Virus record (IMG/VR): IMGVR_UViG_3300028738_000008
Source of the DNA: a virus
Taxonomy: Duplodnaviria > Caudoviricetes
DNA length: 64,000 nucleotides
Strand: one strand, 5' to 3'
Shown: piece after piece, positions 5,104 through 41,886 of the stretch
Numbering within the stretch: position 1 is the stretch's first letter
How the letters are laid out: each line of letters opens with the position of its first letter
Notes under the pieces: generated by a model
The model's database searches: none
Seen by the model: the letters and a program-made list of their open reading frames with translations, nothing else
Told to the model about the DNA's origin: nothing
Program-made: the position numbers and the translations under genes

Positions 5104-5451
5104 CTAGTTATTTTTCATTTTTGTCTTATCTATAAGACTTTTTATTTTTGCATCCTTTTGAGCAATAACTTTATTAAGTTCAACGAAATGTTTCTCAACC
5201 TGATCCTTAATGGCATTGGTCAATTTTAAATTCTCGCTTTCATCATTTTTAAGTTTTGCTGCCCTAACCTCTGCATCGACAGCCTTAGATGCCTTAAGCA
5301 AGCCATTTAACAGATGATTAAACTTTGGAACATTCGTATGTAAACGAGCATCAGCATAAGCCTTTTTCAACTCAACCCTGATTTTGTGTTTCAAAATAAG
5401 ATCAAGAACATATGTCTTGACCTTGTTATACATTTTCTTAAATAGATTCAT
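5104..5451 (-). CDS. hypothetical protein
   Basis: 115 aa basic ORF overlapping the end of the upstream gene. Confidence 0.7.
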   Translation of the reverse strand: MNLFKKMYNKVKTYVLDLILKHKIRVELKKAYADARLHTNVPKFNHLLNGLLKASKAVDAEVRAAKLKNDESENLKLTNAIKDQVEKHFVELNKVIAQKDAKIKSLIDKTKMKNN

Positions 5452-6814
5452 TTTTGTTTAGTAATTTTTTATAGACCTCGACTCTAGCCTTAGTCACTTC
5501 TTCAAGATTATAACTAATTTTAAAATCGTTATGTAATTGTGCGCCCAATCCCTTACGTAATCCTTCATCTAGGATTAGTCTCTTTAAATACTTCGCCCAA
5601 AATTTATTTGAATTTGTTTTTGACGGAATGAGAATGCAATTTTCCATATGTCTGCCATCGACATTATAAGGAGCGACATCACTACATATAATTGGTAGGC
5701 TTCTAGTCCAACATTCAACCTGTTTTAAATTGGATTTCATGTTGTTAAAAGTGTTATCAGCTAACGGCGCAATAACAATGTCAGTCTCATTTAAAACATT
5801 TGCATAAGTATTAACCTTTTGCGTCCAACGTCTAGCATAATTACCCTCATTTGGATATGTGTGAACTCTGTCATATTTGTTGAGGAATGTCAGATAATTC
5901 TTATCTTTAATGATTCTATGGTTATCAGATAATATATTTTCATATAGATAATATGACGATTCTTTGGGTTCGATAGCCCTTTCTGTTTTGATAAAAACGT
6001 TATCCTTATAACGATCACGTAACTCCTGTGGAAGCTGTGTAATACCGCTAATATCGCCTTTACCTTCATTAATTAATTTAATGATCTTGTTGTTATATAG
6101 CTTTTTCTCCTGTAATTCTTTACCAAGTTCTTGATTAAACTTAACCTCGGTTGTATTACCGTTAATATCCCATCCAGCTAAAACCATTTTAAATTTATCC
6201 CTTGTTAGAACGTCATTATTCAAAATGTTTATAACACCCTCCATTTGAGTTAAATCACCTAAATGCGACGAGCCGCCCATGTAAGTAATTCTAACCCTTC
6301 CGTCTGTGCTTGGCGTCCAATTGTTTTGAAACTGATCCATTGAGTTCGGGTCGATTGAATTTGGCATGACGAACACATTATCCAGACCGCTAACTTTTCT
6401 AATTTCGGCGGCGAATAATTCGGTTGTGGTTGTGATGTAGTCGGCATTCTTTATAGCTAGCTCAATATGCTGTTGAAGCCTATTATGAATGTAGAATGCA
6501 TACAAAGGGTGCGACTTTGGTAATTGCCAGTAGTCATCCATGTCTAAAATAAGTATAGTCCCAGCGTCTCGTAATGCTTTACGGAAACTAGGATACTTTC
6601 TAGCATTATATAATTCCTTGTGATAGTGAATTATATCAAATGATGTAAGATAATTTATAATTTCTGGTTCTTCGAAGTTTATATTCGGATTTATCTCTAC
6701 GAAGAATTCGTCGCTATGATTTTTATCAACCTCCATAGCTGGAGTCAATGTTCTATAGTAATTAACGCCTGCGACGTCGGTGTTATAGAATAATATTCTG
6801 ATTTTTTTTTCCAT
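5438..6814 (-). CDS. glycosyltransferase (GT-B fold, GT4-like)
   Basis: 458 aa; GVNYYRTLTP, ILDMDDYWQL, ADYITTTT, IAPLADNTFNNMKSNLKQVE and PIICSDVAPY motifs; contains an insertion of about 100 aa. Confidence 0.8.
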   Translation of the reverse strand: MEKKIRILFYNTDVAGVNYYRTLTPAMEVDKNHSDEFFVEINPNINFEEPEIINYLTSFDIIHYHKELYNARKYPSFRKALRDAGTILILDMDDYWQLPKSHPLYAFYIHNRLQQHIELAIKNADYITTTTELFAAEIRKVSGLDNVFVMPNSIDPNSMDQFQNNWTPSTDGRVRITYMGGSSHLGDLTQMEGVINILNNDVLTRDKFKMVLAGWDINGNTTEVKFNQELGKELQEKKLYNNKIIKLINEGKGDISGITQLPQELRDRYKDNVFIKTERAIEPKESSYYLYENILSDNHRIIKDKNYLTFLNKYDRVHTYPNEGNYARRWTQKVNTYANVLNETDIVIAPLADNTFNNMKSNLKQVECWTRSLPIICSDVAPYNVDGRHMENCILIPSKTNSNKFWAKYLKRLILDEGLRKGLGAQLHNDFKISYNLEEVTKARVEVYKKLLNKNESI

Positions 6815-7248: not shown

Positions 7249-8043
7249 TTAAAATCCCTGAATTAGAGACTCGCCGTATTTGATTCCGTCGAATCCGTAT
7301 TTTTTAGCCTTTTCAGCTATTGCCTTACATTTTAAATTAAATTCGCTAATATTATTTTCTTTAGAAATTGCATTAAAATTCACGTGCGGAAACCATATAT
7401 TTGCCAGAACATCTATAGGATTTTGGCTATTCTTATAAGAAATACCCATTTTATCCGTATCCATGATATTATCAAATTCAATTTCATATTTTTTCATACC
7501 TTCTTTAGGCTGCAACGAAAAGAAATTACCGTTACTGGAATTATTTTTAAAATCATCCCTTCTATATCCAATTAGCTTTACAGCATTTCCAGATTCTTCA
7601 CCATTTTCATTTTCATCTACGCCTGACTCAATACTATCCAAGAAATTATTTGGTATAGTATTGCTCTCAGCCTCTTTTTGCTGCTCATAATCATATATGT
7701 CTTGAACCTTATTTAAGGCTCTGCAAGCGTTTTTATGATCGAGATCAACAATTATAGCTCTTATAGTCTTACGTCCCTCATACAGTGCTTTTACAAGCCT
7801 ATGATGACCATCTAAGACGAATAGTTCACTGTTAATCCATATTGGTTTTTGTTCGTCATCAATATCAGCGTTATCAACCTCATGTGAAAATGTAATTCCC
7901 TGCAAGACTCTCAATATAGCTGGATTAATATCTATAACTCTGCTATTAACGCCATCGGCATTGAGTTTATCAACGACAATCTCAAAAGGTGCATTTACTT
8001 GTGGTAAATAAGCTGGTCTATGCTGCATATCTATTGTACTCAT
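7249..8043 (-). CDS. ParB/Srx-like domain protein with possible C-terminal ADP-ribosyltransferase-like domain
   Basis: PIWINSELFVLDGHHRLVKAL is a ParB/Srx motif; the C-terminal half has GYR..FFS..YEIEFDNIMD..GFDGIKY. Confidence 0.65.
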   Translation of the reverse strand: MSTIDMQHRPAYLPQVNAPFEIVVDKLNADGVNSRVIDINPAILRVLQGITFSHEVDNADIDDEQKPIWINSELFVLDGHHRLVKALYEGRKTIRAIIVDLDHKNACRALNKVQDIYDYEQQKEAESNTIPNNFLDSIESGVDENENGEESGNAVKLIGYRRDDFKNNSSNGNFFSLQPKEGMKKYEIEFDNIMDTDKMGISYKNSQNPIDVLANIWFPHVNFNAISKENNISEFNLKCKAIAEKAKKYGFDGIKYGESLIQGF

Positions 8044-8061: not shown

Positions 8062-11000
8062 TTAAATTTTAAATTCAATCTCTTTAACAGAACCTATAAG
8101 AAATAATGGTTTTCTGTAAGTTATCCAATTTTTTAAATTATTAGACATTTTTGCTGTTGCTCCATTTGACTTATTAACACCAATAGTTATATGTCTTTTG
8201 TCATTAATCGAACCAAATCCAGAAACGCCTACAGCCATAGTGTTATCGTCCATAGCATAACTATCGACCTTCAATCTTACGGTGTATCCTAGATATTTCT
8301 TATAAAAATCATCTATTTCACCAAAATTAATTGTCATATGATCGCCCACAAATTCAAATCCCTCTGGAAGCATACTAGCAAAGCTATCGTATAATTTCTT
8401 TTTAGATCTATCATCCAGCACAATAGCTGAATATGCTATAAATTTTTTACTCATAGGTTTAGTTTGTTCGGGTCTGTTTAGTACTTCATCAATTGGTTTA
8501 TCTTGCGGCGTTACGTCCTTGTAAAAATCGAGGTAGTATTTGTATTGAGGACTTTTTGATTTAATTCTTCTAAGATTTGCCATGATTGAGCCATCATTAG
8601 CATTTTCATCATTAAGGATTTCAACCTGTGCATCGCCAAGTCCAAAAGAGCTAGTGTTCCCGACTCTATGTAATAATGAGAATCTGTTTAAATTTTCTTC
8701 CGAATATAGGGCATAATTGTTGTCAAACATCCCAAGTGCCTCTGACATTCCACCATGAACAAACCATGAGTTCTTACCAGCCACATATAAATCGCCATTA
8801 GGATCGCCAATAGCTCTTACGTCCGCATCGAAATTATCCAATGATTTTGGATTTTTATAAATTGGTATACCCTTACGTTCAGTATCAACAACATATGCGA
8901 CAGGTTTTTCCAATTGGGTCTGTTTGTGTGCCTTAAAATCTCTCTCAAATTCTTTCTCTGGGTCTGGAATGCCAAATCTTTTTTCAGCATACTTATCACC
9001 AACGCCTTCATCCGTTACTGGCAACAATTTGTTTTTATCAAATGGCTTATTTAAGTCTATTCCGTCGCCGTCATAATATTGCTCATAGTATTTAAATTGT
9101 GGATTTTTTGTCGATAATTTATCAAACAATTTATCAATATCTGCACGTGCTGCTCTATTAACTCTCATATAGCCTTCGCTTGAATCGCTTAGTCCGAATG
9201 AATTTAGCTCACCCATTCTGTGCAATAAAACATATTTATCATAGTTTCTATATAATTCATAATTGCTATCTGCAAAAAATAATGATTGACCTATATTGCC
9301 GTGTACAAAATTACCATTTTTTTGTGCTACATAAAGATTACCGTCAGCATCAGACACTGCTCTAACATTATACTCAAAATTTGCAAGAGATTTCGGGTTT
9401 TTATAGATCGGTACTTTTTCTATCTTGTCATGACCATCAGCACTATAATCATAAATTGTTGAGTCAACAAACGCAACAGGTGTATTAGTCTGCGCTAACT
9501 GATTAGCATTATATTTTCTGTTGAACTCGCCCTCTGGGTCTGGAATGCCAAATCTTTTTTCGGCATACTTGTCAGCAACGCCCTCGTTTGCAACACTATC
9601 GTCTTTAATTGAGGTATCTTTGTCAATAGAAACATTTGTAAAGAGATTACTATAATATTTAAACTGAGGATTCTTTTTCATCAGATTCTTAAATATTGTT
9701 AAGCCTTCAATACGTCTTTCCTTATATGCATTCATGTAGCTGAAACTAGTATCGCCTAAGCCGAATGAATTAGTATTATCAACCCTATTGAGCAATAAAA
9801 ACTTATCCATGTGATCATAAATGTCATTTCCGCCGATTCTCAACGCTTTTGCCATATTCTCATGAACAAATGATCCATTTTTCTGTGCGACGTATATATT
9901 TCCGTCATAATCGGCAATTGCTCTTGTAGCTGGTTCAAAGTTACTTAAGGACTTTGGATTTTTATATATTCCGACATTCTCACGAGTGTTGTAAACATGA
10001 TTAGTGCTTCTAACATATGCAGCAGGCTGTTCTAATGTTGATTGTTTATGAGCATTGTATTTACTCTCATATTCGTTATCGGAATTTGGAATACCGAATT
10101 TCTTTTCAGCATATTTATCGCCGACGCCTTCCTGTTCAAGAGATTCAGATACCTGATGTAAATTAAAATTTTCACTTGTGGCATCTGGAATCGCTTCGCC
10201 AGAATTAGGATCAGTCGAGTTGCCAGCATTGAGATAATTAATAATATCCTCACGATTGTTTTTCAGCTTGTCAGTATATATTTTTAATAAAATTTCCTTA
10301 AACTTGTTCTTAATTTGTTCGCCTTTAAATCCTAGATTCATAAGGTCATTACCATTAACAGGTAAATCGGCATTTGACTTAGGGTATTTACCAGACAATA
10401 ATTCATCACATGCTATTTTTACAGGCATTGGAATTATATCCGATTTTAAAGACTCTGGATAAACGGCATACATGTTATAAGCAACTGATCTGGCTTTATA
10501 TATGTTGGCTGCGTCGTCCTTTGAGTCGAATGCTAGCTTCAATGCTTTTATTTCCTTATAGGTGTTGATATCGCCACGCAGTTTTGTTTTAAAAAATTCG
10601 TCAGGTGTATCGATTGTTTTGTCTAACAATAAGTAAATAAACTCGCCCATTGTTTTAGCATTTCTAAACAATTCAGCCTCAGAGTTAAAATTAACAACTG
10701 GATTAGTTCCAAATAATTGCTTATAAATGCCTGTTTCTACTAAAAGATTTGCACCGACTAAATGGTCACCCTTTTGAACTATCTTATCGAACTCTGTTAG
10801 AATCCTTTCAGACGGAATCTCTCTTATTTTCACAGCACTTCCCTGAATAGCTTTCATTGTTTCAGGTTCAATTGTGAACCCGAATCTTGATGCCATTTGA
10901 ACTGCTCTAAGCATTCTTAAAGGGTCTTCGGTAAAAGCTGATGGATCAACCATCCTAATTATCTTATTTTTTATATCGTTAACTCCTCCGAAAGGATCGA

Positions 11001-11931
11001 TTATATTTCCTTCGATATCGGTAGCAATTGCGTTAATCGTCAAGTCACGTCTTTTCAAGTCGTCTTCAATTGGCAACGTATGATCGGATTTTGTTTCAAT
11101 ACCTTTATGACCACCAGCACCTGTCGCTGTATCTGTTCTTGGAATTGCCACGTCTATATCCTCGGTGCTTCCTTTTGGTTTAAATTTCAATACTCCAAAA
11201 GACTTTCCTACAAGGTTTACCTGACCGTATTTACCCAAAATTTGTTCAAGCGTATCCATTGGGACGCCTGTAATCATTATGTCAAGGTCTTTAGATTCTT
11301 TGCCTAGATATTTATCACGCACAGCACCGCCGACAGAGTATATTTTACCACCCAGCTTCTCGATTTCGGCTGTAAAGGGAATCTGATCTAAGCTATAGAT
11401 TTCGGCTTCATCCAAATGATTAAAGTCGTCAGCAGTTCTCGTGTCAACAGGAACATTATTATAATGCTTTTTAATAAAATCGTCTATAGATTTTTTTGAA
11501 TAGCCAAATATTTCGCCGATTTCTCTGGCTTCCTCTGGCGACTTATCAGAAGCATATCCGCCATGACTGTTCATTATGTCACGAAGTCTCAAAGCCTTTT
11601 CTTTATTCGTATAAATAATATAAGACTTCTGGTCGCCTCTCTGAATTGGGAGAACATTGATATTATTATCGTTCAATTTCTTAATAATGTCTCTATTCAT
11701 GTCAACGATCAAGCCGACTTCCCTTTTACCATTAATAAGAGTATTCAAACTACCGTTTAGATCATAAGCGTCGCTAGCATCTATTTCTTCATTAACAATA
11801 GATTTTATAGTAAGATTACTGATATCGCCCTGATTACAAGCGGCTGACTTACCATTAAGTTTACCTAATTTACATTTGTCTTTTACTTCAACAGTTGAAG
11901 CACCCTTCATCCACGATAGTATTCTTTTCAT
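8062..11931 (-). CDS. multidomain protein: class II CCA-adding/poly(A)-polymerase-family nucleotidyltransferase + 3 tandem unknown domains + C-terminal 2H phosphoesterase
   Basis: VGGAVRD, KDLDI, RRDLTINA and EDPLRMLR motifs (aa ~195-345); three ~175-190 aa repeats (aa 601-1148); two HxT motifs (HMT, HIT) in aa 1149-1289. Confidence 0.85.
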   Translation of the reverse strand: MKRILSWMKGASTVEVKDKCKLGKLNGKSAACNQGDISNLTIKSIVNEEIDASDAYDLNGSLNTLINGKREVGLIVDMNRDIIKKLNDNNINVLPIQRGDQKSYIIYTNKEKALRLRDIMNSHGGYASDKSPEEAREIGEIFGYSKKSIDDFIKKHYNNVPVDTRTADDFNHLDEAEIYSLDQIPFTAEIEKLGGKIYSVGGAVRDKYLGKESKDLDIMITGVPMDTLEQILGKYGQVNLVGKSFGVLKFKPKGSTEDIDVAIPRTDTATGAGGHKGIETKSDHTLPIEDDLKRRDLTINAIATDIEGNIIDPFGGVNDIKNKIIRMVDPSAFTEDPLRMLRAVQMASRFGFTIEPETMKAIQGSAVKIREIPSERILTEFDKIVQKGDHLVGANLLVETGIYKQLFGTNPVVNFNSEAELFRNAKTMGEFIYLLLDKTIDTPDEFFKTKLRGDINTYKEIKALKLAFDSKDDAANIYKARSVAYNMYAVYPESLKSDIIPMPVKIACDELLSGKYPKSNADLPVNGNDLMNLGFKGEQIKNKFKEILLKIYTDKLKNNREDIINYLNAGNSTDPNSGEAIPDATSENFNLHQVSESLEQEGVGDKYAEKKFGIPNSDNEYESKYNAHKQSTLEQPAAYVRSTNHVYNTRENVGIYKNPKSLSNFEPATRAIADYDGNIYVAQKNGSFVHENMAKALRIGGNDIYDHMDKFLLLNRVDNTNSFGLGDTSFSYMNAYKERRIEGLTIFKNLMKKNPQFKYYSNLFTNVSIDKDTSIKDDSVANEGVADKYAEKRFGIPDPEGEFNRKYNANQLAQTNTPVAFVDSTIYDYSADGHDKIEKVPIYKNPKSLANFEYNVRAVSDADGNLYVAQKNGNFVHGNIGQSLFFADSNYELYRNYDKYVLLHRMGELNSFGLSDSSEGYMRVNRAARADIDKLFDKLSTKNPQFKYYEQYYDGDGIDLNKPFDKNKLLPVTDEGVGDKYAEKRFGIPDPEKEFERDFKAHKQTQLEKPVAYVVDTERKGIPIYKNPKSLDNFDADVRAIGDPNGDLYVAGKNSWFVHGGMSEALGMFDNNYALYSEENLNRFSLLHRVGNTSSFGLGDAQVEILNDENANDGSIMANLRRIKSKSPQYKYYLDFYKDVTPQDKPIDEVLNRPEQTKPMSKKFIAYSAIVLDDRSKKKLYDSFASMLPEGFEFVGDHMTINFGEIDDFYKKYLGYTVRLKVDSYAMDDNTMAVGVSGFGSINDKRHITIGVNKSNGATAKMSNNLKNWITYRKPLFLIGSVKEIEFKI
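8488..10131 (-). repeat. three tandem protein-level repeats (8488-9009, 9010-9585, 9586-10131)
   Basis: Each begins EGV(G/A)DKYAEK(K/R)FGIP and contains IYKNPKSLxNF, RAxxDxxG(N/D)xYVA, FVH, (N/S)SFGL and K(N/S)PQ(F/Y)KYY. Confidence 0.95.
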
Positions 11932-13749: not shown

Positions 13750-14451
13750 TTAATTATAATTTTTAAAGCATATTGTTATGTATTCAATCAAATTTGGAAC
13801 TGTGTCCAAATGTTTCATGCCCTCAATGGTATACCAACCAAAAGTCGAATGTTCATCATTCAGTTTAATTTTGTCAATATCGCCAGTATATCTGCTTGCA
13901 AATATGTGTTCACAATTAATTGTGTTATCATATATTCTTTCAAGCGTTAATCTTTTTATAAAATTGTCGAGAGCTATACCAGTTTCTTCGAATGTTTCCC
14001 TTTTGCATGCCTGCTCAGGAGTTTCGTCATCTTCAATTTTTCCACCTGCCAATCCATATTTATTAGCTGCCCAACAATTATTCCCACGTTTAAGCAATAG
14101 AAATTCATTGTTTTCGTTAACAATGATTGCCAACGCATTTTCCTGTTTTTGAAAATCATCACTTTCATTTAATGCACCTATTTCAATTTTTCTTGCCGAT
14201 CCCAATGCTGTATCAACGAAATTTTTCATATCTTCGCCGCCAGCTAATAGATACTGAACATCGTTTGCGCCCATGCTTGCTAAATCATGTTTCAGTCTTT
14301 TTAATGCCTGATATGTTAATGATCCATTTTTCAGAATGAACTTAGCTCTACGAATTCCATCACTGTCAGGATATCTTGTAATAGCAGCACTTATAACGTT
14401 TAATACATTCTTTGGCACTGCAAAATTTTTACCGTATAATTCGCTATTCAT
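13750..14451 (-). CDS. Nudix hydrolase with N-terminal extension
   Basis: Nudix box GGKIEDDETPEQACKRETFEETGI (GX5EX7REUXEEXGU); about 95 aa N-terminal domain. Confidence 0.9.
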   Translation of the reverse strand: MNSELYGKNFAVPKNVLNVISAAITRYPDSDGIRRAKFILKNGSLTYQALKRLKHDLASMGANDVQYLLAGGEDMKNFVDTALGSARKIEIGALNESDDFQKQENALAIIVNENNEFLLLKRGNNCWAANKYGLAGGKIEDDETPEQACKRETFEETGIALDNFIKRLTLERIYDNTINCEHIFASRYTGDIDKIKLNDEHSTFGWYTIEGMKHLDTVPNLIEYITICFKNYN

Positions 14452-15050
14452 TATTTACTAACCTCTATTAGATTCTTCAATTTATTTTTTGAGCCATTGT
14501 CTAGCTTGTTAATCAGACCAGCTATCTTTGTAACACTTTTGTCCGTAATATCCCTATCATTAGATTTTGCTGATAGAAAATTATCAATCTTTTTATCGAC
14601 GATGGTATCTTCATCTACAATAGACTCGTCCACACTTGAAGGCTTATCGCCGAATTTTTTTACAATCTCTTTAGCATACACCTCGAAGTACTTAACGACA
14701 TCCTTTGATATGGTTTCCTTTTCGGTATAAATTCTAAAATCGTTTTTCAAGCTATTAGGGTTCTTATAGTAATGTTTCATAAGTTCCTCATAGAATTTAC
14801 GGAGAATTTCAAGCGTATCTGTTAAGTCTTTATTCTTCTCGTCAGAGCCTTCGCCCTCAAAAAATGGTAGCATGACAGAACCAAAATATCCCATCATGCT
14901 ATCACCGAAAGGTTGATGCCCTACAGCCATATTATAGTCAGTAATTTTTTTAGAAACTGTGCTCATATTTGGGCCAGTTTTTGGTACATTATCGCTGCCA
15001 ATAAGACCGCCGTCAGCATCTATAACTTCATTTATAAGAATAACTTTCAT
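14451..15050 (-). CDS. hypothetical protein (candidate head protein)
   Basis: 199 aa, first gene after a GTATTTATAT motif. Confidence 0.75.
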   Translation of the reverse strand: MKVILINEVIDADGGLIGSDNVPKTGPNMSTVSKKITDYNMAVGHQPFGDSMMGYFGSVMLPFFEGEGSDEKNKDLTDTLEILRKFYEELMKHYYKNPNSLKNDFRIYTEKETISKDVVKYFEVYAKEIVKKFGDKPSSVDESIVDEDTIVDKKIDNFLSAKSNDRDITDKSVTKIAGLINKLDNGSKNKLKNLIEVSK

Positions 15051-15068
15051 GATAATTCGAGTAATTTT

Positions 15069-15078
15069 ATATAAATAC
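15069..15078 (-). promoter_or_regulatory. putative late promoter GTATTTATAT
   Basis: Exact motif 18 nt upstream of the ATG at 15050. Confidence 0.65.
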
Positions 15079-19823: not shown

Positions 19824-21614
19824 TTATTTATATTTGTTTTTAATCCTATTGATAACATCTGATATAACTGCTTCCGACGTTGTTGATACGTAATCCTCAT
19901 TATCCATTACCTTTGTAATCTCTCTACGCTTACCTTCAATCGCATCGTAAACATATTCGTCAATACTGTCCTTAACAATCGTCGGGTAGATGTTTACAGC
20001 ATCTTTCTGTCCGATTCGGTGGCATCTGTCAGCAACCTGATCATATTCTCCAACAGAATATGGTAATGTCATAATAATCATTTTGCTTGCCGCAGTTAAC
20101 GTAAGTCCGTAGTTTGCAGTTTGTATTGAAGCCAAAAATATCTTAATCTCGCTATTAGGGTCTTGAAAAGTCTTTACCAACTCTGCCCTTTCCTCTACTG
20201 ACTGATCGCCTGTATGAAGGGCTGCAATATTACCAAAAATTTTCTTAAATTCATACAAACTTTCTTTAAAATTGTCAACAATAATTACCTTTTCACCTGT
20301 TTCAAGTATATTCTCGATGATCTCAACAACAGATTCAATCTTAAATTTGGCGGTTAATTGCCTAAGCCTAAGCATTGTTGTTAATGCATTTTGTGCCAGT
20401 CCAGAAAACAAATCGTTAGCAACATTTTTCTCAACATCGTCATATATCTTCTGATCAGCATCACTCAATTCGAATATAATTTTCTGATATGTCTTATCAG
20501 GAAGATCAGTTAAAACCTCAGCCTTTCTTTTTCTGTGCGTGTATGGCGATATTTTGAAGTAAAGTTCTTCAAGCCTTTTCTCGCCATCTTCGTCAACCTT
20601 CCAACCGAATCCGTCTATCTCGTAAACCATGCCACAATAATACTCGTAAAAGTATTTTTTGGTTGCAAAGTCTAAAGGAGATATCTGATTAAGCACTGAA
20701 TATAATTCGAATGCTCTATTAGGTGCTGGCGTTCCTGATAAATATATTTTACTAGGCTTACCGTCGATAAAAATATCTTCGTTAAATAGCTTTTTATAAT
20801 TCTTATAAGTATTTGAGTCAGTATTCTTTAACTTTTGACATTCGTCACATATAACAGCGTTTATGTTTCCAACCTTAAGTTTTTCCCATTTTTTCGCCAT
20901 TTTTGCCTTGTCGCTGGGATTGAAATAATCGTAATTAACGATAATGTATTTAGCCTCGGCAATTGTACATGTATTCTTTTTCCAATTGATAATATATGCC
21001 TTACTGTTGGTGAACGTCGAAACCTCATTATAATAATTGAATTTTAATGAGTTTGGCGTCACCACGATAACTTTTTTGAAGTTATTCATTTCAACATAAA
21101 GAATTGAACTCAACGTTTTTCCTAAACCCATTTCATGCGAAATTAATGCACTTCTGGTTTCATTCATAAACATTGCTGCGATTATCTGGTGAGGATATAG
21201 TTTGATAGGAATCTTTATCAACGCATGAAGGCGTTGAGAGTAATCGATATACGTTGTTTCGAGTTCGAGTTTATATTTGTCCCATTTTAGCTTTTTCTCA
21301 TTAAGTTCTTTGAGTAAATTTACCTTATCGGTTTCAGCTTTCTCATGTTTTTTAAAAAGATCGACAAAAAGCTTTCGACTATCAATAGTGCCAAAGTCAA
21401 AGTGTATGTACTCAGAGCCTTTAAAACTTTTGATAAGTTCTATTAAGCCTGATACACTCACTTCCCAACATATTTTTGAGGCATTCCATTTTCTATTGGT
21501 CTGATCTAATGATTTGATCTTATCCTTTAGCTCCTCATTATATATGAATTTTGTGTAGTACCACGCTCTACGTGGAATTCTCTCACAGAATACTATTAGT
21601 TTAAAATCACTCAT
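19824..21614 (-). CDS. SNF2-family helicase/translocase
   Basis: LYPHQ, HEMGLGKT, CDECQ, LSGTP, GLTLTAA and QVADRCHRIGQ motifs. Confidence 0.92.
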   Translation of the reverse strand: MSDFKLIVFCERIPRRAWYYTKFIYNEELKDKIKSLDQTNRKWNASKICWEVSVSGLIELIKSFKGSEYIHFDFGTIDSRKLFVDLFKKHEKAETDKVNLLKELNEKKLKWDKYKLELETTYIDYSQRLHALIKIPIKLYPHQIIAAMFMNETRSALISHEMGLGKTLSSILYVEMNNFKKVIVVTPNSLKFNYYNEVSTFTNSKAYIINWKKNTCTIAEAKYIIVNYDYFNPSDKAKMAKKWEKLKVGNINAVICDECQKLKNTDSNTYKNYKKLFNEDIFIDGKPSKIYLSGTPAPNRAFELYSVLNQISPLDFATKKYFYEYYCGMVYEIDGFGWKVDEDGEKRLEELYFKISPYTHRKRKAEVLTDLPDKTYQKIIFELSDADQKIYDDVEKNVANDLFSGLAQNALTTMLRLRQLTAKFKIESVVEIIENILETGEKVIIVDNFKESLYEFKKIFGNIAALHTGDQSVEERAELVKTFQDPNSEIKIFLASIQTANYGLTLTAASKMIIMTLPYSVGEYDQVADRCHRIGQKDAVNIYPTIVKDSIDEYVYDAIEGKRREITKVMDNEDYVSTTSEAVISDVINRIKNKYK

Positions 21615-22095: not shown

Positions 22096-22110
22096 ATTAA
22101 ATTATCTTTT

Positions 22111-22120
22111 ATATAAATAC
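22111..22120 (-). promoter_or_regulatory. putative late promoter GTATTTATAT
   Basis: Exact motif 15 nt upstream of the ATG. Confidence 0.65.
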
Positions 22121-23995: not shown

Positions 23996-24547
23996 TTAAT
24001 TAACAGCAGCGTATGACTGCGACTCAAAACTTTTCGAAATGAACTCCAAATCGCATCGTTTAATGTGATTATAAATTTCATTTGTCACTGATTTTACAGC
24101 GTCAACAACATCTACAGAATATCTGCAAGTCGGGTTGAAACCATTCACGTAGAATGTTCTTTCAACAATGGTTTTTCCATTGACATAAAAACCTATTGAA
24201 CATGGAACGCCTTTTATAACTTTGTCCTCAATCTGATAAGACACAATTGAAGGGTCATAAATAAGGTCATTACGAATGTCGTCCTCATACGAGTCGATTA
24301 TGTCATTAGCATAATTAAACAGTTCATAATGTTTTTCCTCACCCACATATGCAAATGTTTCATAATACCTTTTGGATAAGGTCTTTTGAAACATACCAAT
24401 CGCCTTGGGTAGAATATGACGAATGTTAATAGGATACCTAACTTCTGGGCTAAAATCCGATGAATCTATCATCTTTTCACAAAGCAGAACATCGCCCTGA
24501 TGAAGCGAGAATTTGAAGATTTTACCAAACTCGTTATCGTTACTCAT
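23996..24547 (-). CDS. hypothetical protein
   Basis: 183 aa ORF with its own TAnnTTTG element. Confidence 0.8.
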   Translation of the reverse strand: MSNDNEFGKIFKFSLHQGDVLLCEKMIDSSDFSPEVRYPINIRHILPKAIGMFQKTLSKRYYETFAYVGEEKHYELFNYANDIIDSYEDDIRNDLIYDPSIVSYQIEDKVIKGVPCSIGFYVNGKTIVERTFYVNGFNPTCRYSVDVVDAVKSVTNEIYNHIKRCDLEFISKSFESQSYAAVN

Positions 24548-31328: not shown

Positions 31329-31342
31329 AGCATTATATTTTT

Positions 31343-31352
31343 ATATAAATAC
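31343..31352 (-). promoter_or_regulatory. putative late promoter GTATTTATAT
   Basis: Exact motif 14 nt upstream of the ATG. Confidence 0.65.
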
Positions 31353-32002: not shown

Positions 32003-33499
32003 TTATTGATTAATAAATGTATCCAGTATCAGCTTATTTTTTTCGTAAAATGGCATCAATTGATTGAAATAGTCTTTATTAAGATTCTTAAGCTTGTTTT
32101 CGCTCTTATTTCTCGTGATAGATTCCAAATGATAAGCAACCGCATCGTTTACGGTAACATTTTTCTTATCATTTAATAGACAGGTAAAATTCAACTCAAC
32201 GTCTTCAAAACATTCAATATAATTCTCATTAAACTGCCCCAGAACTGTAAACAGATTTTTGTTTATCATCAAAAATGCGCCTGTATTACCAATGGAATTG
32301 TAGTTGACGTGTATCGAATAATCGTTGGTCTTTTTCAAGTCAACATGCGATAAATGTAATTTGTTGTCTGTAATATGCGCCTCAATTCCACAGTGCTGTA
32401 CCGAAGAATTTTCGTAATGTAGTCTTATACCAATTGTGCCTATATTAAGCCTATCGCTTCTGTATATCTCAACACATCGGCTTAAAGCATCATTCATCAA
32501 CTCAATATCGTCATTACAAAAAAGAACTATTTCAGTATCAGCATTAACGTGGTTATTAACCACATCATTGTTGATTTTTGCAAAGTTATAATAATCGTAT
32601 TTAACAACGCTAACTTTATCTGATAATAGTTGATCATATTTAGCTAAAACATCTGAATCGCTACCTGTATCGGCAATGATAATATTATAGTTTTTATATT
32701 TAACATATTCATTCCAAGATGTTATATTATCTAACAATATATCGAAATTGTTTTTTGTTGGTATGATTACCGTTACCTTTGGGTCGTTTCCTTTTGGAAC
32801 GATCTTAATTTCGTCGCAAATAGGCGGAATCGACATTGGCAAGTATTCCTTATATTTCTCGACGAATAACTGTCTATTACGTTCCCAATCGGGACTTGTC
32901 TGTCCGACTGATTTATGCAGTATTCTGATCGTCGTGATAACACCAATATTAACGCCGTCCAAATAATTGTCCAAACTAAATGAAATATCATAAAAATGAA
33001 AGCCATCAAATTCTTCATTGAAGTTCGACACTAAATCAGGGTCTGCCGCCATAAATACGCCATCAACAATTACAACTTCCTTAATGTCTTTAATTGGTGC
33101 TGAAAAATTACTAACCCATGTATTAATATCGTCAGTGTGTTCGACGATACCAAACATCGTATTTTTCGCTTCCCACCATATTGCGGACTCTGAAATACTG
33201 GTTGTGCCAGCTAATCCAATTATACCATAATTATGACTGTTGAATTTGGCAAGCAATATTCTACCCCAATTCATTGTTTTGAAAATGATATCATTATGTA
33301 TAAAACAAAATATGGCATTAGTAGAATTGGTCTCAGCTAATGCCCTATTATATAGTGACGTTAATGAATATTCATTGTTATTCTCATAACAAATTATTTC
33401 ACATTTTGCACCTATAGTACTTCGTATATGTAGGTCAAATGCCTTATTATCAATGTCACTATTTTGTGACGAATACACTACTATAATTCTATTTTTCAT
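32003..33499 (-). CDS. two-domain GT-A (GT2-like) glycosyltransferase
   Basis: N-domain SLYNRAL..FCFIHNDI..VVIVDGVFMA..FHFYDISFSL; C-domain VTVIIPTKN..IIADTGS..NFAKINN..LFCNDDI..GNTGAFLMI..FEDVELN. Confidence 0.85.
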   Translation of the reverse strand: MKNRIIVVYSSQNSDIDNKAFDLHIRSTIGAKCEIICYENNNEYSLTSLYNRALAETNSTNAIFCFIHNDIIFKTMNWGRILLAKFNSHNYGIIGLAGTTSISESAIWWEAKNTMFGIVEHTDDINTWVSNFSAPIKDIKEVVIVDGVFMAADPDLVSNFNEEFDGFHFYDISFSLDNYLDGVNIGVITTIRILHKSVGQTSPDWERNRQLFVEKYKEYLPMSIPPICDEIKIVPKGNDPKVTVIIPTKNNFDILLDNITSWNEYVKYKNYNIIIADTGSDSDVLAKYDQLLSDKVSVVKYDYYNFAKINNDVVNNHVNADTEIVLFCNDDIELMNDALSRCVEIYRSDRLNIGTIGIRLHYENSSVQHCGIEAHITDNKLHLSHVDLKKTNDYSIHVNYNSIGNTGAFLMINKNLFTVLGQFNENYIECFEDVELNFTCLLNDKKNVTVNDAVAYHLESITRNKSENKLKNLNKDYFNQLMPFYEKNKLILDTFINQ

Positions 33500-36869: not shown

Positions 36870-36883
36870 TAATCATTTATTTT

Positions 36884-36893
36884 ATATAAATAC
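36884..36893 (-). promoter_or_regulatory. putative late promoter GTATTTATAT
   Basis: Exact motif 14 nt upstream of the ATG. Confidence 0.65.
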
Positions 36894-41864: not shown

Positions 41865-41876
41865 GTTACGTTTATT

Positions 41877-41886
41877 ATATAAATAC
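41877..41886 (-). promoter_or_regulatory. putative late promoter GTATTTATAT
   Basis: Exact motif 12 nt upstream of the ATG. Confidence 0.65.

Follow-up and report, generated by a model that had tools for sequence, protein, structure and literature searches.

P0001 of an uncultured phage: a class II CCA-adding enzyme joined to a repeated, undescribed domain and a 2H phosphoesterase in a candidate head-cargo polyprotein

A 64,000-nucleotide stretch of DNA from the IMG/VR virus record IMGVR_UViG_3300028738_000008 (hereafter the window) contains, at positions 8062..11931 of the minus strand, a single open reading frame (ORF) whose 1289-residue, 145-kDa product is referred to as P0001. From the N- to the C-terminus, P0001 comprises (i) a two-Cys module, (ii) an NleE/DUF2023-like domain, (iii) a class II CCA-adding enzyme, (iv) three copies of a domain designated REP, and (v) a predicted 2H phosphoesterase. 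On the basis of its sequence and that of its relatives, P0001 appears to be a variant of the polyvalent proteins of phages and conjugative elements (Iyer, Burroughs, Anand, de Souza, and Aravind 2017; PMC5512222) that contains an undescribed domain family. A further, tentative reading, which we hold to be a little short of evenly balanced, is that P0001 would be a late-made polyprotein that is cut by a prohead protease, packaged in the head, and injected for the repair of RNA or tRNA ends.

Several results stand regardless of whether P0001 is cleaved. REP, a large family that is modelled with confidence and conserves His and Arg residues, is absent from Pfam, PHROGs, and PDB; phage CCA enzymes are associated with an NleE-like domain; and the conserved two-Cys module and a leader peptide found in relatives are described here.

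The single ORF and all of the motifs quoted for it in the original prediction (GGAVRD, DLD, RRDLTINA, EDPLR, HMT, and HIT) are borne out. A product identical to P0001 from M8 onward is present on 24 contigs, the longest being 237.6 kb, so the ORF is no assembly accident. The record that contains the window is a 112.8-kb viral fragment with a CheckV completeness of 34%, which corresponds to a genome of ~330 kb, and relatives of P0001 are located on contigs of 300–355 kb. The source is an uncultured phage of ~330 kb with T4-like tail genes.

Domain composition of P0001 and its relatives

The REP copies occupy aa 602–783 (9583..10128), aa 784–975 (9007..9582), and aa 976–1149/1153 (8485..9006; the copy that was modelled), all on the minus strand. 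The unit is ~180 aa long, and pairwise identity among the three copies is 44–46%. Across a library of 1.8 billion proteins, the family counts 760 cluster representatives at E ≤ 1e-3, many of which are stand-alone proteins of 170–210 aa. The model built from an alignment of 83 units has a pLDDT of 92.7 and a pTM of 0.87. One His, one Pro, and one Phe are invariant, while two Arg, an Asn, an Asp, and a Tyr are near-invariant; all are kept in each of the three P0001 copies. This conservation pattern suggests a ligand-binding or active site rather than a spacer, and the probable role of REP is to bind or process a ligand that carries phosphate, for instance an RNA end or a nucleotide.

The original prediction had described a novel domain in three copies, and this description withstood comparison with Pfam, PHROGs, PDB, BFVD, and GenBank phages. 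None of the 83 units matched Pfam at E values up to 5, and neither PHROGs nor BFVD returned a match. Foldseek comparison of the individual segments, to which the same prediction had pointed, was productive for the NleE-like segment (E 2.4e-4) and gave nothing for the REP fold against PDB at E ≤ 0.001. A wide VIA-align search of PDB reached a best Z of 3.3, with NFACT-R/DUF814-type chains leading, which is too weak for use. The top match among AFDB clusters is an uncharacterised 150-aa protein (E 4.7e-4, TM about 0.5) and is not convincing, while the shape search of the ESM Atlas remained at TM < 0.4 and the feature search gave no usable match. Weak leads point to polymorphic-toxin domains (an Atlas feature score of 0.87 with 179 shared features; AFDB rows with E values of 0.2–1.5). 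The identification of REP with the Ntox44 and "bacterial toxin 43" domains was rejected, as PF15607 is silent in five REP-bearing genomes (E up to 1) and no Pfam match exists in the 83 units.

The CCA-adding nucleotidyltransferase (aa 176–575; 10207..11406, minus strand) appears to have a head, neck, and body, is called by Pfam and PHROGs, and is matched by NCBIfam. It carries the class II motifs GGAVRD201, DLD215, RRDLTINA294, and EDPLR335, with motifs A, B, and D all in agreement with this class. PolyA_pol (PF01743) matches at aa 197–326 (E 3.9e-25) and PolyA_pol_RNAbd (PF12627) at aa 351–407 (E 8e-14), both above the Pfam cut-off, and Pfam and PHROGs together call a tRNA nucleotidyltransferase at about aa 196–570. 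The best NCBIfam model is NF009814, a Bacillus-type CCA tRNA nucleotidyltransferase (E 1.3e-49, covering positions 13–392 of 396), whose score of 169 bits lies under the 290 bits set as equivalog cut-off; PcnB models give lower scores and partial matches. The HD-bearing NCBIfam model for multifunctional CCA addition and repair is matched in its first half alone, which indicates that P0001 has no HD domain. The complete class II nucleotidyltransferase without HD of the original prediction is thus upheld by Pfam, NCBIfam, and the motif positions.

Not one of the 33 tRNA genes in a related complete genome (G001) encodes CCA, so plain tRNA maturation would be a sufficient role for the CCA part. 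Its tRNA region spans 134–283 kb, the genome GC content is 26%, and one tRNA is called as tRNA-Pyl with the anticodon CTA, i.e., amber-reading.

The predicted 2H phosphoesterase (aa 1150–1289; 8065..8484, minus strand) carries the motifs HMT1198 and HIT1247. The two HxT motifs on which this domain had been proposed are invariant in all 21 homologous domains compared (the C-terminal 140 aa of P0001 and 20 homologues). Three homologous domains score above the Pfam tRNA_lig_CPD cut-off of 23, namely those of P0010 (26.1 bits), P0016 (25.2), and P0013 (23.3). The copy in P0001 itself has no Pfam, NCBIfam, or PDB sequence match, and a PDB profile search gave chance matches only.

Residues 1–175, to which the original prediction assigned no domain, are more than a leader; they hold a two-Cys module and an NleE/DUF2023-like domain. 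The basic two-Cys module (aa 1–47; 11791..11931, minus strand; consensus S.M.GS..V.VK.KC[KR]LG...CNQGD..NL..K.I.E) is modelled with a confidence of 62–71 and occurs once per protein in about 45 relatives, mostly far inside the chain. Neither this module nor the leader peptide has a match in the libraries or papers covered by the searches made here.

The NleE/DUF2023-like domain (aa 48–160; 11452..11790, minus strand) is recognized by its model, VIA-align, Foldseek, and profile comparison, with a pLDDT above 90 over its whole length. VIA-align places it on the NleE/OspZ cysteine methyltransferase structure 4r29_A (Z 10.8, rmsd 2.1 Å over 107 aa, 27% identity) and on the DUF2023 structure 2guk (Z 10.5), with both of which it shares the core fold; the next unrelated match has a Z of 4.9. 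The profile comparison with 4r29 (E 1.1e-3) aligns the GKR motif (R70) onto NleE R107, and the Pfam NleE model PF20798 matches 8 of 37 relatives (best E 2.5e-7). P0001 itself scores under the cut-offs of the NleE models (PF20798, 16.9 bits against 27; NF033830, 22.1 against 75) and aligns to NleE residues 85–220 only, the N-terminal 84 residues being missing. For these reasons, the domain is called NleE-like, and methyltransferase activity is not claimed.

About 95 long metagenomic relatives combine the Cys module, the NleE-like domain, CCA, REP (1–5 copies), and 2H in many different orders; the comparison of domain order across homologues, which had been proposed as a check, thus reveals an order that varies freely. 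To the same set of modules, relatives add ART-PolyVal, GNAT, NUDIX, Acb1/LigT-type 2H domains, and uncharacterised regions, with the long N-terminal regions of Cys-type relatives yielding only GNAT in Pfam. The closest relative, P0003 (59% identity), has an ART-PolyVal domain where P0001 has REP1. This shuffling with ART-PolyVal, GNAT, NUDIX, and Acb1-like 2H domains is what marks P0001 as a variant of Aravind's polyvalent proteins, for which ART-PolyVal is a hallmark of those proposed as injected (PMC5512222). The term "CCA-adding" was not found in PMC5512222, nor "NleE" in PMC7824862; the searches of these papers were not aimed at REP, the Cys module, or the junctions.

Junction motifs, leader peptide, and candidate delivery with the DNA

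A Glu motif at every domain junction had been the core of the original prediction. The six junctions, all on the minus strand, are the leader-like IVNE45-48 (11788..11799), LDE173-175 before CCA (11407..11415), LEQE598-601 before REP1 (10129..10140), VANE780-783 before REP2 (9583..9594), VTDE972-975 before REP3 (9007..9018), and PIDE1146-1149 before 2H (8485..8496). The claim holds insofar as six of the seven occurrences of [ILV]-x(0-1)-[NDQ]-E in P0001 fall at these boundaries.

The junction Glu, on whose conservation in homologues the prediction depended, is indeed conserved. REP units begin G-V-[GA]-D-K-Y-A-E-K, with Glu at −1 in 83 of 88 and a hydrophobic residue at −3 in 55 of 88. CCA is preceded by [MI]-N-E, followed by A-E-I-M-S-L-Q-D-L-P-F, and 29 of the 34 windows upstream of it contain the motif. 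In 19 of 25 relatives, hydrophobic-[NDKQE]-E lies 5–20 residues before the conserved YSAVVLD start (first strand) of 2H. The background for the CCA and 2H junctions, taken from random 15-residue windows of the same proteins, is 11.7%. The NleE-like domain begins [LI]-N-E, followed by E-I-D-A-S-E-A-Y, and that Glu (E48) is nearly invariant in the alignment. A conserved hydrophobic-x-Glu thus stands before four unrelated domain types in the family.

Among the 194 family proteins, 74 have an N-terminal leader with the pattern M-x(1-8)-[ILV]-I-x-E-E-hydrophobic (IIxEEI-type); their first domain is REP or, in many cases, ART-like or other. Stand-alone REP proteins start M-N-I-x-x-I-I-x-E-E-I-x(4-6)-E and continue directly with G-V-x-D-K-Y. 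On one 3.4-kb contig (L045; 3-3327), three consecutive complete genes, encoding proteins of 357 aa (weak GNAT match), 457 aa (T4 Y05D-like), and 194 aa (REP), all start with the leader M-[ND]-I-x-K-I-I-x-E-E, and the partial first gene has the same motif near its cut 5′ end. The 457-aa protein has a Pfam Phage_T4_Y05D match and a REP-like C-terminus. Among the neighbours of the large IMG/VR relatives, the leader occurs in 3 of 412 ORFs, and occurrences in G001 are few. In P0001, a leader-like string, IKSIVNEEI, is internal (aa 42–50, after the Cys module) and matches the leader consensus of the relatives.

Around 30 polyproteins with the Cys module (P0007, P0018, P0023, P0043, and others) start M-T-Y-[DE]-E-F, followed by IGSGSGR. 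This start resembles the T4 capsid targeting sequence (CTS) MKTYQEFIAE, perhaps by chance, and Pfam has no match in that part of the proteins.

Genes for Peptidase_S77 (T4 gp21-type) are present in three of five related records (G001, G002, and G003), including both that are at least 90% complete. In two of them, the gp21-like match is in two pieces inside an ORF of ~650 aa (G001:212760-217430 and G002:294247-298914), which points to a protease with a large insertion or extra domains. The internal proteins of T4 are diverse and share only the CTS, which is removed by gp21; processing of T4 Alt takes place at ITE-6 and LTE-619, and Glu is likewise the residue after which all of the related giant-phage proteases cleave (PMC3012670, PMC5694885, bioRxiv 10.1101/2021.01.19.427310).

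P0001 lies in a tightly packed minus-strand gene run (15050 to 8062, gaps of 2–26 nt, first ORF 14451–15050), at the head of which stands the promoter-like 11-mer TATTTATATAA (15067..15077, minus strand). The 112.8-kb record holds seven exact copies against 1.1 expected, all on the minus strand and each 9–16 nt before an ORF start. In addition to the copy at the head of the run, copies lie at 2699–2709, 22109–22119, 31341–31351, 36882–36892, and 41875–41885, with one more before the window. One precedes the baseplate wedge gene 2295–2687 and two precede large ORFs adjoining tail genes. TATTTATATAA is probably a phage promoter or 5′-leader element, and because it is common to the gene run and the baseplate wedge gene, late expression of P0001 is plausible. 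The T4 late promoter TATAAATA was considered and rejected: it is seen 30 times against 14.8 expected, but its intergenic copies are on the plus strand and represent the reverse-complement overlap of TATTTATATAA.

The leader, the conserved junctions, the promoter motif, and the occurrence of the protease in relatives agree with one another and make cleavage and packaging plausible, so that the original interpretation is supported in part. The pairing of CCA with 2H suits repair of tRNA 3′ ends, which is plausible as well. The corresponding mechanism would run as follows. P0001 would be made from a late-type promoter, and a prohead protease of the T4 gp21 type would cleave it behind each junction Glu, giving about seven pieces that represent separate enzymes. 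These would be packaged in the head and enter the host together with the DNA, like T4 Alt and the internal proteins. The 2H piece would then open 2′,3′-cyclic phosphate RNA ends, while the CCA piece would rebuild tRNA 3′ ends, so that RNA ends broken by host defence ribonucleases might be healed. If so, P0001 would include the first tRNA CCA-adding enzyme delivered as injected cargo, and the phage would repair or pre-empt tRNA damage before any phage gene is expressed.

A broader proposal is more speculative and, taken as a whole, rather unlikely. It holds that uncultured megaphages of 300–350 kb may have a programmable head-cargo system, in which any module could be strung behind a leader with hydrophobic-x-Glu junctions, cut by the protease, and injected as a cocktail. 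P0001 would be the RNA-end-repair version of such a system, and REP a new phosphate-ligand-binding or catalytic fold that supplies an end-healing step or sequesters a host signal. Should the junctions prove to be genuine cleavage sites, they would provide a sequence-readable rule for the proteins that giant phages load into their heads.

Several observations weigh against cleavage, packaging, and injection or qualify the evidence for them. The junction motif is short and, with seven occurrences against about six expected from composition, shows no overall excess in P0001. Three of the six junctions are one repeat-start motif and hence not independent observations, and the relatives behind the junction counts are not independent samples either. 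V, M, or T frequently stands at P3 instead of I or L. At the CCA and REP junctions, the motif could be explained, on the basis of the REP model and the sequences, as a helix N-cap with a hydrophobic staple; such a cap is hard to invoke before 2H, where the linker is variable and non-helical. P0001 and P0003 start with the Cys module and have no terminal leader. The T4 protease model finds no S77 match in the window's own 112.8-kb, 34%-complete record, and the P0001 gene is positioned between replication genes and baseplate genes. No REP was detected by tblastn in 50,697 GenBank phage records, i.e., in any cultured phage among them. Finally, 2H leaves a 2′- or 3′-phosphate and no phosphatase was identified, so the repair chain would be incomplete unless REP supplies this step.

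Much of this would suit an uncleaved cytoplasmic multidomain enzyme that matures or maintains phage tRNAs and other RNAs, an alternative that we regard as unlikely on the whole and as the most serious competitor. Its junctions would be no more than domain starts (an N-cap and an acidic first turn) in an AT-rich, Asn/Glu/Ile-rich proteome; the motif count in P0001 is what composition predicts. The strings MNE-AEIM and E-GVGDKYAEK suit helix starts, and in the REP model helix 2–11 comes right after the Glu. With none of its 33 tRNA genes encoding CCA, G001 has a housekeeping need for CCA addition, and CCA enzymes are common in jumbo phages, where they have been interpreted as stand-alone RNA-repair enzymes (PMC7824862, the 2021 sequel to Iyer et al.). 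The location next to replication genes also agrees with this alternative. It accounts poorly, however, for one motif before four unrelated folds, including the non-helical linker ahead of 2H, and for a leader common to different proteins; in addition, domain order shuffles freely, which suggests that no part needs the others in cis.

An improbable variant of head delivery is that P0001 would be anti-signalling cargo: 2H would degrade cyclic or 2′-5′ nucleotide immune signals like Acb1, the REP copies would be ligand sponges whose number raises capacity, and the CCA and NleE-like domains would act on other targets. Relatives do have Acb1/LigT-type 2H, NUDIX, and ART domains next to REP, which itself varies from 1 to 5 copies and keeps its His, two Arg, Asn, Asp, and Tyr in all. 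Moreover, Iyer et al. (2017) argue that the 2H domains of polyvalent proteins, which never occur linked to an RNA ligase, may have nucleotide signals as their targets (PMC5512222). The 2H type of P0001 is nearest to the tRNA-ligase cyclic phosphodiesterase (CPDase) family, not to Acb1, and its CCA domain looks like a complete tRNA-type enzyme that includes neck and body; both points count against this variant. That P0001 is packaged and delivered whole, with junctions that serve folding or flexibility, as in some conjugative polyvalent proteins (TraC1- and Sog-type proteins are transferred full length; Iyer et al., PMC5512222), would also fit the late-type promoter motif and the ART-PolyVal association, but is quite improbable given that the conserved Glu and hydrophobic P3 match the specificity of the protease family in relatives and that stand-alone single modules have a leader ending in the same Glu.

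Neighbouring genes

Two neighbouring genes have links to the P0001 family. The NUDIX gene (13750..14451, minus strand), a member of the same gene run, encodes a domain that, in P0028, P0072, and P0086, is fused N-terminally to the same polyprotein family (E 1e-13 to 1e-15); among the neighbouring ORFs, it alone matches the polyprotein set. In its product, the NUDIX fold is immediately preceded by ALNE, the last residues of a ~95-aa N-terminal extension. Directly downstream of P0001, the gene 7249..8043 (minus strand) encodes a ParB-like protein (ParB/Srx-like, DGHHR; a weak PHROG ParB-like match) that weakly matches the DGHHR insert between REP units of P0028 (pairwise E 1e-4). Given the NUDIX fusion elsewhere and the resemblance of the ParB-like protein to P0028, the gene run appears to form a single functional set.

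The first ORF of the run (14451–15050, minus strand) starts with the leader-like MKVILINEVIDADGG, and YYKNPNSLKNDF within it is similar to the REP core motif. This ORF was rejected as a REP relative: the string YYKNPNSL is like REP, but the profile match is not significant (E 0.24). Elsewhere in the window, TAnnTTTG-like boxes, as in Bacteroidota −7 promoter elements, lie upstream of 5438–6814, 19824–21614, 23996–24547, and 32003–33499 and hint at a Bacteroidota host and a second promoter class.

Comparison with known systems

The closest enzymatic parallel is E. coli Cca, the bacterial multifunctional CCA-adding and repair enzyme. Both proteins join a class II CCA nucleotidyltransferase and an end-healing phosphoesterase in one chain, but P0001 has 2H in place of HD and three REP domains between 2H and the CCA body. 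The 2H domain itself compares with the CPDase of fungal and plant tRNA ligases and with LigT-type 2H proteins. Two HxT motifs are present in P0001 as well, and homologues pass the tRNA_lig_CPD cut-off; unlike the tRNA ligase CPDase, P0001 has no kinase or ligase partner.

The head cargo of T4 consists of counter-defence proteins that bear a short targeting peptide, are cut after Glu in I/L-x-E, and are injected, with Alt being an ADP-ribosyltransferase. The P0001 family resembles this cargo in that relatives share a leader, junctions end in Glu with a hydrophobic P3, and related genomes encode S77 proteases. It differs in placing many enzymes on one chain, whereas T4 has one per gene, and in its leader, which is of the IIxEEI type rather than MKTYQEFIAE and is not terminal in P0001.

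P0001 is likewise close to the polyvalent proteins (PMC5512222) in being very large and in having many conflict-type enzymatic domains whose order varies among relatives, and its relatives, too, carry ART-PolyVal, GNAT, and 2H. Members of that class have been proposed to enter the host with the DNA and to have their domains released by proteolysis. P0001 has no peptidase domain of its own, and release would need the head protease in trans. What sets the P0001 family apart from the polyvalent proteins is the hydrophobic-x-Glu before every module and, in relatives, the N-terminal leader.

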